Below the pieces are notes generated by a model. The model saw nothing but the letters and a program-made list of their open reading frames with translations. It was not told the origin of the DNA and searched no databases. From a phage: a stretch of DNA of 64,000 nt. The stretch is taken from the NCBI GenBank assembly GCA_012813795.1, contig GCA_012813795.1_4087.1; one strand, written 5' to 3'. The translations under genes and the position numbers were made by a program. Below, in pieces: positions 18,697 through 34,457 of the stretch; position 1 is the stretch's first letter; every line of letters starts with the position of its first letter.

Positions 18697-19465
<769 letters not shown>

Positions 19466-19468
19466 ACA

Positions 19469-19601
<133 letters not shown>

Positions 19602-19602
19602 A

Positions 19603-19702
<100 letters not shown>

Positions 19703-19746
19703 ATAGGCACATACGGGTCTGCTTTTAAGCTACTGATTCGGGAATC

Positions 19747-19792
<46 letters not shown>

Positions 19793-19799
19793 CGTTCTT

Positions 19800-20018
<219 letters not shown>

Positions 20019-20027
20019 TAATACCCT

Positions 20028-20429
20028 TTAGTAGTTTAAGTCAGCGGCGTTGAACACACCGAGTGAAGTCTTACCACGTAGTTTAGGGGAAATGACATAT
20101 TTTGTCAATGTCTTTTTACCGTACCAGTACTCGAAATCTTTTTCTTCTACATACGGATTAGGGAAATCCCATTTGCGTTCTTTATGAATTTGCTTGGCCT
20201 GGACTTGAAGCTTTTCAACTTCATCTGGTGGTACAGTATCTACATTATTAAACTGCATGTACATACCTTTTAACCCATCAAGAATTAATTTTTCAGTTTC
20301 TTTAACTAATGTAATCTTTTCGATTCCAGTACTGATATTCATGTAGTCATCTACATAACCATTCCAGATAACAATCTCTGGATTACCTTCGATTCCCTGA
20401 AGCATCTTGATCAAGTCATTCTTTTTCAT
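20028..20429 (-). CDS. hypothetical protein
   Basis: 133-aa ORF. Confidence 0.55.
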   Translation of the reverse strand: MKKNDLIKMLQGIEGNPEIVIWNGYVDDYMNISTGIEKITLVKETEKLILDGLKGMYMQFNNVDTVPPDEVEKLQVQAKQIHKERKWDFPNPYVEEKDFEYWYGKKTLTKYVISPKLRGKTSLGVFNAADLNY

Positions 20430-20437
20430 TTGAATTC

Positions 20438-22078
<1,641 letters not shown>

Positions 22079-22263
22079 ATCACCAACTTTAATTAAAAAA
22101 ATGGATGGTGACGCTTTTAAACGCCGCTGTTAATTCAGCTTTATAACCACCCGTTTTAACTTGCCTTTCGGCTACCTTGACGTGGGGCGTACAGGCTACT
22201 AAAAGCAACTTCTGTAAACATATTTCCACGCCTTACCATTTTCATTATATCAGTACTTTTATC

Positions 22264-23385
<1,122 letters not shown>

Positions 23386-30884: not shown

Positions 30885-32257
<1,373 letters not shown>

Positions 32258-32272
32258 TTGTGCCTCTGATGG

Positions 32273-34171
32273 TTAAAAGAATATATCACGTAGTAAATGT
32301 TCTATAACAGGTGCTGTCCAGCCATTACCAAGCATTTTGTACGCTTGTGTTGAACTACTAACTTTGAAGTAGTTTACATCAATTCCTTGCAACATGCAAC
32401 ACTCTTGTACTGTTAAATGACGATAGTCCACATTTCGTTTACCCTTCTCAATCAGGAAGTTCCTGTTGATATCAGGGTCTTTGAAAACGATTTGTCTTCT
32501 TGACTTATTGAAGTACTGATTCGGATCTCCACCCTTGAAGTAGTTTGCGTCAATGCAATATGATTTATCACGATCAGTATACCAATTACCAGTTAGTATA
32601 TCTTGTAATTTTGGTGCTAAAATAAGAGGTTTTGGAATAAACAACTTATCCGAGCTATACCAGTAGTAACGTTGGCGATAATGTGCTGTATAATTTTGTG
32701 AATTTATCAAAATTGGTGTCATTTCCAACACGCCATTGATATAATCCTTGAAATCTTCCTTCATCTTAACATTCTCAAAAAGAACTTTCAAGTTAGGATT
32801 GAGACTTTTTATGTGCTGGTAAATATCAACCATTGTATGGAATAACATACCACGAGGATCATTCACACCGCCTTGTTTCCCAGCAACTGACCACGCTTGG
32901 CAGTTATGAACTACAATATTGTTCGCCGTATATGTGTTATCTACTGCAACTTCAATATTGTAAACGGTTTTCCATTCTCCGGTTGTGGTGTTCGATTTAA
33001 CACCTTTTACCCATGAATATGACCCATCATCATAGAATGCTTCATCTTTTCGGTGCTTTTCTTTTTTGTATGTTAATACGTAATACGGCTTCTGATTAAC
33101 AACACGTTCTTCTATAACTTTTGTTTCAGACGGTTTAAAGTATGTTATGTTAGAATGACGACCATACACATTCATAATTAGTTGTTGTATACCAAGAATA
33201 ACATTCTTTGATGTTGATGTAAATTTTAAACAATCATCTTTCTTGTCATGGTGACCATCTGCGTCAAAATAACCATCAATGAATGCTTTCTGATTAGCGA
33301 TACTTTCAGTGAAAAGTGTGGGGTGTACTTGTTTATTTGAAGCACCCTTACCCATTTGTTCACAAAATTCAACTAGTTCTTTTGAACAAATATAGAATTT
33401 ATAAGATGTTCTTTCTTTAACAAAATTATATTTCATATTCATACCATCAAAACATGAAACCAATTCATCAAATTCATCATGAGCACAGCAAATAAAAACA
33501 CGATATTGATAACTATTTTTTCTATTTTGTCGTTTTACTTTGTAAGTCCATCCATCACCCATAAATCTACCCATGAAATACCAAAAGCTTTCACTCTTGT
33601 TATGTTGAAAATTCACATTACAACGAACATTACATATAGCATGTTCTTCTGTGAGTTCATGTGCATCGATCCATGTAGGTTCTGTATATTCACGAACATA
33701 TTGTCGTTTTTCATTATCCCACTTCTTGCTCATTTTTCTCGCATAAAATGGATGATTATCAGTGCATTCAATTGGTATATGTCCCTGACCTGTGATGATT
33801 CTTGTTGGTGCAATCTTGCTACCAATACTCAATACTTTTTGGTATTGTCCAGTGTGTGTAAGAACCATATCACCAATTTTTATATCTTTTATATCTTTAT
33901 GACCTTCATTTGTCATGATCATGGTTCCTGCTGGGAAGCAAGGAAAACCACCCATCAGAAGATCTATCTTGTCCCATTCGATATCCCATTCTTTCCATCT
34001 AGTTACATCACCCAATTGGATGATATCAGGAAAGTTAGCCTGGGATTCAGCTATAGCAAATTTATCAATTTCAGATGAGTAGTACTTTTCAACTGGTATT
34101 CCTGCACTTTGCAAGGCCATATACCCAACACTCATCCCATTGAATAGTGATAGTACACGTATCGGTTCCAT
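32273..34171 (-). CDS. DNA (cytosine-5)-methyltransferase (Dcm-type) interrupted by an in-frame intein
   Basis: Motif I (LFNGMSVG), motif IV GGFP|C...CQAWSVAG split exactly at the PCQ catalytic Cys, ENV motif, C-terminal GNGWTAPV motif. Confidence 0.75.
   Translation of the reverse strand: MEPIRVLSLFNGMSVGYMALQSAGIPVEKYYSSEIDKFAIAESQANFPDIIQLGDVTRWKEWDIEWDKIDLLMGGFPCFPAGTMIMTNEGHKDIKDIKIGDMVLTHTGQYQKVLSIGSKIAPTRIITGQGHIPIECTDNHPFYARKMSKKWDNEKRQYVREYTEPTWIDAHELTEEHAICNVRCNVNFQHNKSESFWYFMGRFMGDGWTYKVKRQNRKNSYQYRVFICCAHDEFDELVSCFDGMNMKYNFVKERTSYKFYICSKELVEFCEQMGKGASNKQVHPTLFTESIANQKAFIDGYFDADGHHDKKDDCLKFTSTSKNVILGIQQLIMNVYGRHSNITYFKPSETKVIEERVVNQKPYYVLTYKKEKHRKDEAFYDDGSYSWVKGVKSNTTTGEWKTVYNIEVAVDNTYTANNIVVHNCQAWSVAGKQGGVNDPRGMLFHTMVDIYQHIKSLNPNLKVLFENVKMKEDFKDYINGVLEMTPILINSQNYTAHYRQRYYWYSSDKLFIPKPLILAPKLQDILTGNWYTDRDKSYCIDANYFKGGDPNQYFNKSRRQIVFKDPDINRNFLIEKGKRNVDYRHLTVQECCMLQGIDVNYFKVSSSTQAYKMLGNGWTAPVIEHLLRDIFF
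32903..33940 (-). mobile_element. intein with LAGLIDADG homing-endonuclease domain (346 aa, residues 78-423 of the MTase ORF)
   Basis: Starts CFPAGTMI (block A), ends VVHN followed by extein Cys; two LAGLIDADG motifs (MGRFMGDGW, IDGYFDADG). Confidence 0.65.
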
Positions 34172-34370
34172 CTATAATCCTTTATAAAATAAAATACTGG
34201 ACGAATATTCGCCCAGTATTGTCCTTTTTAATACTATTTAAAACTTATGTGGATTTCTCTTTTTAAGACCATCCAGTACATCAGTAGGTAGAATTTCACG
34301 GAATGACCCCACTGGGATAAGGATCATTACATATTTCAATTGGAGTTTCCTCGTTGTATAAGATTGATTA

Positions 34371-34399
34371 ATTGTATAATATTATTGCTCCATTGTCAA
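34371..34399 (-). promoter_or_regulatory. promoter-like element upstream of the MTase gene (TTGACA, 17 nt, TACAAT)
   Basis: tgtcaa 34394-34399; attgta 34371-34376. Confidence 0.35.
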
Positions 34400-34457
34400 G
34401 CAAAATATAATTCCTTATACATTCTTTCTCTCTGATACAAACATTATATCTCCTAAT

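Follow-up and report, generated by a model that had tools for sequence, protein, structure and literature searches.

Inteins with a LAGLIDADG endonuclease have already been described in phage DNA methylases: they interrupt N6/N4 methylases of actinobacteriophages (Kelley et al. 2016, PMC5050341; Gosselin et al. 2023, PMC9957025), and in a 2025 survey (bioRxiv 10.1101/2025.01.02.630785) the C-5 methylase (IPR001525) appears among the intein-invaded actinophage proteins. The element considered here lies in the phage contig GCA_012813795.1_4087.1 (assembly GCA_012813795.1), a stretch of 64,000 nucleotides (nt) that was analyzed at its full length and is called the window below, where an in-frame insert of 346 codons interrupts a C5 DNA methyltransferase gene. 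This insert is very probably a class-1 bifunctional intein, composed of a Hint domain and a monomeric two-motif LAGLIDADG endonuclease, which occupies the motif IV Pro-Cys junction of an orphan C5 methyltransferase of an Asteriusvirus jumbo phage and resides there as a selfish passenger; splicing, DNA cleavage, and methylation are its activities and those of its host protein as predicted from the sequence and a structural model. As such, it is a so far unannotated example of a known intein type, the standard intein/homing-endonuclease model fits it, and no new mechanism is involved.

The actinophage methylase inteins are similar to the window intein in that they also reside in orphan phage methylases, with a patchy distribution and horizontal transfer between divergent methylase alleles, and the mycobacteriophage inteins are its detectable homologues (26% identity, E 1e-30). 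At the same time, the exteins described by Kelley et al. are different, being N6/N4 methyltransferases of Actinobacteria phages that are interrupted at another site (Pacc40, ...NVQMHV/C...VVKN/CPLQFD; here and below, a slash marks a junction or an insertion point). ICP1 (PMC3037004) was considered as a further methylase-intein precedent and was rejected, its intein being located in NrdA and not in a methylase. No literature was found on a methyltransferase intein of Asteriusvirus or other enterobacterial jumbo phages, nor any in which the motif IV Pro-Cys site is called a hot spot for inteins; both results are weak evidence, as the searchable library is incomplete.

The boundaries of the insert follow from comparison with genes that lack it. 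In an alignment of five intein-plus and five intein-less proteins (the latter from phages 121Q, Turkey5, Hallingskeid, GAP32, and RaK2), a single gap of 346 residues falls exactly between P77 and C424 of the precursor, which is much more than chance would produce. The intein-less genes run unbroken through the insertion point (GGFPCQAWSVAGK, GGFP/CQAWSVAGK), with RaK2 deviating at the site itself (GGSP/CTDVS). Excision of the insert restores GGFPCQAWSxAG, the methyltransferase motif IV, as an earlier note made from the letters of the window had proposed; the junction strings quoted there (LLMGGFP, CFPAGTMI, NIVVHN, CQAWSVAGK) are all found in the translation of the open reading frame (ORF), and the proposed 346-amino-acid (aa) intein with two LAGLIDADG motifs was recovered at aa 78-423, with the motifs FMGRFMGDGW and FIDGYFDADGH. 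The position that the note gave, 32273-34171, is that of the correct ORF but spans the whole host gene, whereas the intein itself occupies 32903..33940 on the minus strand.

Domain searches are in agreement with this delimitation. Pfam Hint_2 (36.7 bits, cut-off 28.4) and LAGLIDADG_3 (aa 294-360, 33.8 bits, cut-off 22.5) were recognized in the insert, and the matches to Intein_splicing (24.6-27.2 bits) and, weakly, to TIGR01443 intein_Cterm (13.8 bits) stayed under the respective cut-offs of 35.8 and 15.6. Hint blocks B, F, and G, the absence of which had been named in advance as refuting an intein, were all found on inspection, as was block A, and the block F Asp, the penultimate His, and the terminal Asn are all present in VYNIEVAVDNTYTANNIVVHN. 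In an alignment of the window intein with 31 metagenomic relatives (A3, 32 sequences), T60, H63, and N346 are invariant, and C1, D334, and the +1 Cys are nearly so, together with the GRxxGDG and GYxDxDG cores and Lys203. Both LAGLIDADG motifs, each with its acidic residue (D129, D228), are kept in all five phage alleles and in A3. A hidden Markov model derived from A3 matched only the methyltransferase ORF (4e-131; next E 0.11) among all 262 six-frame ORFs, and no other intein was found by this search in the 64-kb window.

The AlphaFold2 (AF2) model of the intein, built on alignment A3 (mean pLDDT 92.9, pTM 0.90), consists of a beta-rich splicing domain around two alpha-beta-beta-alpha-beta-beta units. 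Its DSSP assignment (H117-129/E/E/H154-166/E/E/H187-194, then H214-228/E/E/H245-259/E/E) displays the duplicated alpha-beta-beta-alpha-beta-beta-alpha fold. The top Foldseek matches in the PDB are endonuclease-containing inteins, with TliVMA being the best (E 1.6e-18, TM 0.71); the E values for TliVMA, PI-SceI, and PI-PfuI range from 1e-18 to 1e-13, PI-PkoII is matched too, and the central domain taken separately matches I-DmoI (E 7e-9, TM (target) 0.6-0.69). A PDB search by sequence only gave weaker matches to the gp41-1 intein, PI-PkoII, the VMA intein, and I-DmoI. The solved inteins TliVMA (7qsu/7qss), PI-SceI (1vde, 1lws), PI-PfuI (1dq3), and PI-PkoII (2cw7) have in common with the window intein a Hint domain split by a two-motif LAGLIDADG endonuclease and the nucleophile set Cys1, TxxH, His-Asn, and +1 Cys (Foldseek E 1.6e-18 to 1.5e-09, TM <=0.71), but the sequence identity to them is just 10-18%, and they sit in V-ATPase, ribonucleotide reductase, or polymerase, whereas the window intein sits in a DNA methyltransferase with Pro at -1. 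Moreover, the window intein is compact (346 aa), and no further region for DNA recognition is evident outside the endonuclease core when the secondary structure of the model is mapped.

The same data bear on the possibility that the insert is removed at the RNA level, as a group I/II intron with an in-frame endonuclease ORF, or that it is a free-standing endonuclease gene fused to its neighbor by misannotation. Phage genes are often broken by introns with LAGLIDADG, HNH, or GIY-YIG ORFs, and an in-frame non-intein insertion in a phage methylase is on record (the ShiLan domain, PMC11855218), but the Hint domain here lies on both sides of the endonuclease, the boundaries are exactly at Cys1 and HN/C, the fold matches solved inteins over its whole length, and no intron family was detected even at E<=1. 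An Rfam search of the whole window at the gathering threshold gave five tRNAs only, and a permissive search of 32200..34250 gave two chance-level matches and no group I/II intron family. Because no intron signal is seen and the reading frame is continuous, removal at the RNA level is not a serious alternative; taken together with a fused endonuclease gene, its probability is practically negligible compared with that of an intein. The features of the interrupted gene are collected in Table 1.

Table 1 Features of the methyltransferase gene and its predicted intein (positions are those of the window)
Feature	Position	Strand	Details and basis
Precursor ORF, C5 DNA methyltransferase interrupted by the predicted intein	32273..34171	-	632 aa + stop; = A4_120 of Escherichia phage A4
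N-extein, aa 1-77, end DLLMGGFP, Pro at -1	33941..34171	-	Pfam DNA_methylase aa 4-79; aligned to DNMT3B and M.HhaI
Methyltransferase motif I, FNGMSVG	34124..34144	-	N-extein
Motifs II (SSEID) and III (LGDV)	within N-extein 33941..34171	-	sequence
Motif IV, first half, GGFP	33941..33952	-	N-extein
Predicted intein, 346 aa (precursor aa 78-423), Hint domain split by LAGLIDADG endonuclease	32903..33940	-	gap vs intein-less homologues, domain matches, AF2 model, Foldseek
Block A, CFPAGTMIMT, with Cys1 (codon 33938..33940; = precursor Cys78)	33911..33940	-	C1 nearly invariant, 32-sequence alignment
Block B, ECTDNHPF, with TxxH (intein T60, H63)	33746..33769	-	T60 and H63 invariant, 32-sequence alignment
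LAGLIDADG motif 1, FMGRFMGDGW, intein 122-131, precursor aa 199-208, acidic D129	33548..33577	-	G124 invariant; R125, D129, G130 nearly invariant
LAGLIDADG motif 2, FIDGYFDADGH, intein 220-230, precursor aa 297-307, acidic D228	33251..33283	-	G223, G229 invariant; Y224, D228 nearly invariant
Blocks F and G, VYNIEVAVDNTYTA NNIVVHN; D334, penultimate H345, terminal N346	32903..32965	-	V326, V331, Y337, N346 invariant; D334 nearly invariant
C-extein, aa 424-632, start CQAWSVAGK	32276..32902	-	spliced protein aligned to DNMT3B and M.HhaI
+1 Cys (Cys424) codon, methyltransferase catalytic Cys, motif IV	32900..32902	-	alignment
Motif VI, FENV	32768..32779	-	C-extein
Motif VIII, RQRYYW	32660..32677	-	C-extein
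Motif X, GNGWTAPVI	32303..32329	-	C-extein
Presumptive co-conversion tract beside the insertion site, ~-3..+102 nt	32801..32902 (extein part)	-	JNE01 vs Turkey5 extein differences

The host protein was recognized by Pfam DNA_methylase (PF00145) on both flanks of the insert, with 102.2 bits (4.9e-29) for the precursor and 123.6 bits (1.6e-35) after splicing in silico, and the TIGR00675 cut-off (100.65 bits) was passed by the spliced sequence only (116.1 vs 96.4 bits for the precursor). The designation "Dcm-type" given in the earlier note thus stands in the generic C5 sense but not in the strict one, as the model of the E. coli Dcm subfamily (NCBIfam NF007772 / PRK10458) was missed by far (25.9 bits, with a cut-off of 710). 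When PDB sequences were searched, the spliced protein aligned over its full length with the catalytic domains of DNMT3B and DNMT3A (E 2e-22), the GGSPCNDLS of which sits opposite its GGFPCQAWS; it also aligned with M.HhaI (E 2e-18). It is owing to this alignment at motif IV that the residue following the intein can be assigned as the catalytic Cys of the methyltransferase. Motifs I, IV, VI, VIII, and X are all intact, and the predicted host enzyme is a compact DNMT3/M.HhaI-like C5 methyltransferase of 286 aa after splicing. The central proposal of the earlier note, a LAGLIDADG intein at the catalytic motif IV Cys of a C5 methyltransferase, is accordingly borne out by alignment, domains, and fold.

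According to the standard model, translation would give a 632-aa precursor with a split methyltransferase active site, in which Cys78 (intein Cys1) would attack the carbonyl of Pro77 in an N-S acyl shift. The N-extein would be passed by trans-thioesterification to Cys424, the +1 residue and methyltransferase nucleophile, cyclisation of Asn423 would release the intein, and an S-N shift would leave a native Pro-Cys bond in a 286-aa enzyme with GGFPCQAWS. When a related phage without the intein co-infects, its allele would be cut by the freed intein endonuclease in the GGFP/CQ-coding site, with a predicted cut at or near GGTTTCCCA/TGTCAAGC, and repair off the intein-plus allele would copy the intein together with ~100 nt of flanking extein. 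Since 346 residues separate the two halves of the catalytic loop and its nucleophile is used in splicing, the precursor should be inactive, and it is reasonable to expect that methylation depends on splicing. A selfish passenger, settled at a site that the host cannot change, describes the intein better than a device required by the phage.

At the methyltransferase locus, the window agrees to 99.8% in DNA sequence and to 100% in protein sequence with Escherichia phage A4 (ON286972.1), an Asteriusvirus jumbo phage of 355 kb, where the product USL83787.1 (A4_120) is labelled just "DNA-cytosine-methyltransferase" with the intein unannotated. The identity of the whole window to ON286972.1 is ~97-98%, with indels present, and a part of the tRNA region (window ~21717-22900) is just 81-89% identical to A4. 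Judged by these values, the window belongs to a close relative of A4 and is not the A4 record itself, and it would be the sixth genome with the A4-type intein allele. The insert is found at the equal place in four further Asteriusvirus records (TH47, vB_EcoM_JNE01, UE-S1, and ph0011), and the ORF is uninterrupted in all five intein-plus phage records and in the window. Against these five records stand ~35 listed intein-less relatives with a gene of 285-288 codons in the syntenic position, such as 121Q, PBECO4, Turkey5, Erwinia phage Hallingskeid, and Cronobacter phage GAP32; the intein-less gene of Klebsiella phage RaK2 has ~297 codons. The orthologues in Asteriusvirus, Mimasvirus, and Alcyoneusvirus (121Q gp91, PBECO4, Turkey5, GAP32 gp390, RaK2 ORF194) share the genomic position, all methyltransferase motifs, and an extein identity of 66-81%, and they differ by the absence of the 1038-nt insert; apart from it, the 121Q- and Turkey5-type alleles are distinguished from the intein-plus ones mainly by the ~100 nt that follow the insertion site in the downstream direction. 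Note that the public records label the gene only as methyltransferase or hypothetical protein, and the 632-aa product would not be an active enzyme; with the intein unrecognised, size- or domain-based methyltransferase comparisons of these phages would be misleading.

Mobility of the intein is supported by the pattern of divergence around the insertion site, which was determined from extein DNA aligned after removal of the inteins (870 positions for JNE01 vs Turkey5). The intein-plus phage JNE01 and the intein-less Turkey5 are 98-99% identical across the 1.5 kb upstream of the gene, and their exteins differ at 36 of the 870 positions, 29 of which fall within -3..+102 nt of the site (binomial P = 8e-21); this corresponds to 27% divergence within the 105-nt tract and 1% elsewhere in the exteins. 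For the intein-plus TH47 and the intein-less 121Q, divergence amounts to 23% inside the tract and 7% outside. Among themselves, the intein-plus alleles diverge by 8-18% inside the tract and by 12-28% outside, being closer to each other inside it, which argues that the tract travels with the intein. By this comparison, the tract would be the co-conversion footprint expected of endonuclease-initiated double-strand-break repair. Additionally, synonymous divergence (dS) between JNE01 and TH47 is 0.25 for the intein vs 1.10 for the exteins, which indicates an intein younger than its host gene in these two phages and is consistent with transfer between diverged hosts. Within the window intein, identity to the UE-S1 intein is 95-100% over the first 120 nt and the last ~105 nt, and identity to the JNE01/TH47 type is 85-92% over nucleotides 360-600; such a mosaic, with UE-S1-like ends around a JNE01-like core, points to recombination between intein lineages. 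Cleavage of the intein-less allele and homing are the presumed means of this mobility. Intein homing appears to be cleanly exemplified in these E. coli jumbo phages, which can be cultivated; collections already contain near-isogenic intein-plus/intein-less pairs (JNE01 with Turkey5, TH47 with 121Q), and homing frequency, co-conversion length, and fitness cost are therefore directly measurable.

It could also be supposed that a genuine intein has lost its endonuclease activity and stands at a late, decaying stage of the homing cycle, passed on only by vertical descent or carried along by the general recombination of phages. Decayed relatives are indeed known (P0003 and the mini-inteins P0039 and P0040, see below), and the endonuclease domains of the A4 and UE-S1 types share 39% amino-acid identity, with a ratio of nonsynonymous to synonymous divergence (dN/dS) of 0.5-0.7. 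However, neither of the two catalytic Asp residues has been lost, nor has the conserved Lys203, and the endonuclease-domain dN/dS is 0.09 for JNE01-TH47, where dS is unsaturated, and ~0.1 for A4-JNE01, so that the domain appears to be under purifying selection where this is measurable without saturation. The low age of the JNE01/TH47 intein relative to its host gene and the short site-centred tract, of the kind that endonuclease-initiated repair leaves, argue in the same direction, and an inactive endonuclease is considered rather unlikely; a functional homing endonuclease within the intein is preferred.

The statement in the earlier note that inteins in DNA methyltransferases are rare did not survive the database searches, in which related inteins at the Pro-Cys (P/C) site of motif IV were encountered in viral metagenomes, bacterial genomes, protein clusters, and named phages. 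In IMG/VR, the first 600 pattern matches listed include at least 444 confirmed relatives; classification of the insertion site was made for the best 80 of these loci, 65 of which have the P/C site, 60 of the 65 with ENV downstream. Bacterial genomes (one per species) gave 46 loci, and 21 of the 36 classified full-length loci are at the P/C site, the hosts being mostly Clostridia, Treponema, and Bacteroidales. With only the intein as query, a protein search gave 42 metagenomic clusters, ~35 of them with PF00145; all the PF00145-bearing sequences read that include the N-junction conform to ...P/C...HN/C(Q or T)x(F, W, or I)S, and two others are truncated before it. Among phages, 108 records hold a related intein (24 of them Erwinia phage records), with the P/C site occupied in Lactobacillus phage Nyseid, Erwinia phage Y3, P1-like Dmt, and Mannheimia phage 587AP2, and a variant SPD/C site in Pseudomonas phage Lana.

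The P/C-site inteins (Nyseid, Y3 and relatives, Dmt of OP279344 and RCS47, Paenibacillus cisolokensis PACILC2_22540, and IMG/VR and metagenome-assembled genome loci) share with the window intein 24-54% identity, the insertion point, the ENV motif after it, and the use of the catalytic Cys of the enzyme as the +1 nucleophile. Their host methyltransferases are diverse and often much larger (fusions such as Dmt), whereas the window host is a compact 286-aa DNMT3-like enzyme of an E. coli jumbo phage; most of these records carry no intein annotation. The Pro-Cys motif of C5 methyltransferases is thus a heavily used intein site across viral metagenomes and bacterial genomes, seemingly little described.

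Of the points that weigh against the interpretation given here, the first concerns splicing itself. In one characterised intein, N-terminal cleavage is comparatively slow when the -1 residue is Pro (PMC11842431), and Pro thioesters are slow to ligate (PMC5458133), so efficient splicing cannot be assumed. The second is that the co-conversion pattern, although it proves that recombination was centred on the site, does not tell which enzyme began it. Furthermore, dS is saturated in most comparisons that involve the A4-type allele, which makes the dN/dS values approximate and selection on the window copy less well measured, and no closest intein-less partner was found for the window itself.

The first of these points could be taken further, to a gene killed by the insert, in which splicing is poor or absent owing to the -1 Pro and the methyltransferase is a non-functional relic. 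The methyltransferase is an accessory gene product, that of ICP1 phages being encoded by some isolates only (PMC3037004); C-exteins have decayed right after the intein in Mannheimia phage 587AP2 and in IMG/VR loci L094/L095, one relative (L072) has Ser at +1, and the -1 Pro is kinetically unfavourable in the tested systems mentioned above. Nevertheless, the ORF is unbroken in the five phage records and the window, the methyltransferase motifs and splicing residues are all intact, and the exteins are under purifying selection, with dN/dS of 0.06-0.13 overall and 0.06-0.07 for the intein-plus pairs JNE01-TH47 and A4-UE-S1. Every member of the P/C insertion class has Pro at -1, and hundreds of independent relatives keep it together with an intact downstream ENV (60/80 best IMG/VR loci), which argues that the clade splices in this context and suggests that P/C-site inteins are adapted to it. 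A dead host gene is considered quite improbable, and an intein that splices remains the preferred reading.

A post-translational switch is another role that might be proposed for the intein, with conditional splicing, either redox-controlled through a Cys1/Cys+1 disulfide or DNA-dependent, timing the activation of the methyltransferase in infection. Both junction nucleophiles are Cys, and with the +1 Cys being the active-site residue no activity would be expected before splicing. Conditional splicing is documented in other inteins (the disulfide trap of Pyrococcus abyssi MoaA, RadA, DnaB), which counts in favor of such a role. On the other hand, most close relatives are free of the intein, the near-identical JNE01 and Turkey5 differ only by its presence, which is the signature of a dispensable selfish element, and no sequence feature points specifically to regulation; co-option as a switch is therefore very improbable, and the selfish passenger is favored. 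A broader proposal, to which only a small chance is given, is that of a methyltransferase-dedicated intein clade specialised for an unfavourable junction (-1 Pro, +1 catalytic Cys), the splicing of which, at least in jumbo phages, may be conditional on redox state or on DNA, the intein then being an activation timer and not only a parasite. In a weaker form, the same proposal would be that inteins able to form and resolve prolyl thioesters with efficiency occur naturally in this clade. The Pro(-1)/catalytic-Cys(+1) junction, at which the members of the clade splice if they splice at all, is of practical interest for intein engineering.

Several relatives deserve mention in their own right. In the P1-like dmt gene (Escherichia phage P1 isolate OP279344, locus L014, 2501-3523; also RCS47 and vB_EcoM-Ro157c2YLVW), an intein is found at VGGTP/C...VVHN/CQAFSIAG, although the gene is labelled Dmt only, and no paper was found on a P1-like Dmt intein. 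In locus L072 (IMG/VR UViG_2898545487_000004, 1734-2780), Ser replaces the catalytic Cys after the intein (GFVVHN/SQGFSLAG), and the spliced motif IV would read P-S-Q. In Mannheimia phage vB_MhS_587AP2 (locus L011, 1501-2520), the C-extein ends 20 residues past the intein (CQSDKGG...stop), the gene is split into separate coding sequences, and an HNH endonuclease gene lies just downstream of the intein locus; the host gene is likewise truncated after the intein in L094/L095 (IMG/VR), and loci of this type look like decayed host genes that retain the intein. P0003 (a Logan contig, 551 aa) is a methyltransferase close to the window exteins; in its P/C-site intein, LAGLIDADG motif 1 is missing and motif 2 is without its acidic residues, so that this intein, as read from the sequence, would be an endonuclease-dead stage; P0039 and P0040 carry mini-inteins at the P/C site.

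The same intein clade is also found outside the P/C class: in N4/N6 methyltransferases of the mycobacteriophage type at H(V or L)/C...KN/CPLQ (L124-L132, L098, L016), in SPE/C-type and HPP/C-type methyltransferase-like proteins, and in another extein class with HA/C...HN/CG junctions (L028-L030, L040, L048, L104, L118). This distribution suggests that the clade has jumped repeatedly between host proteins.

As to the surroundings of the gene in the window, the gap upstream of it (34172..34457, minus strand) is 286 nt long vs ~52 nt in 121Q and JNE01. No Rfam family and no convincing small ORF were found in this gap; two strong sigma-70-like promoter matches (34471-34443 and 34399-34371, each 11/12) lie in the region, and a terminator-like hairpin (34220-34193) stands directly ahead of the ribosome-binding site of the methyltransferase gene. 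A cluster of five tRNA genes, fitting the A4-annotated tRNA-Ser, Ser, Met, Asn, and Thr, occupies 19132..23260 on the minus strand.

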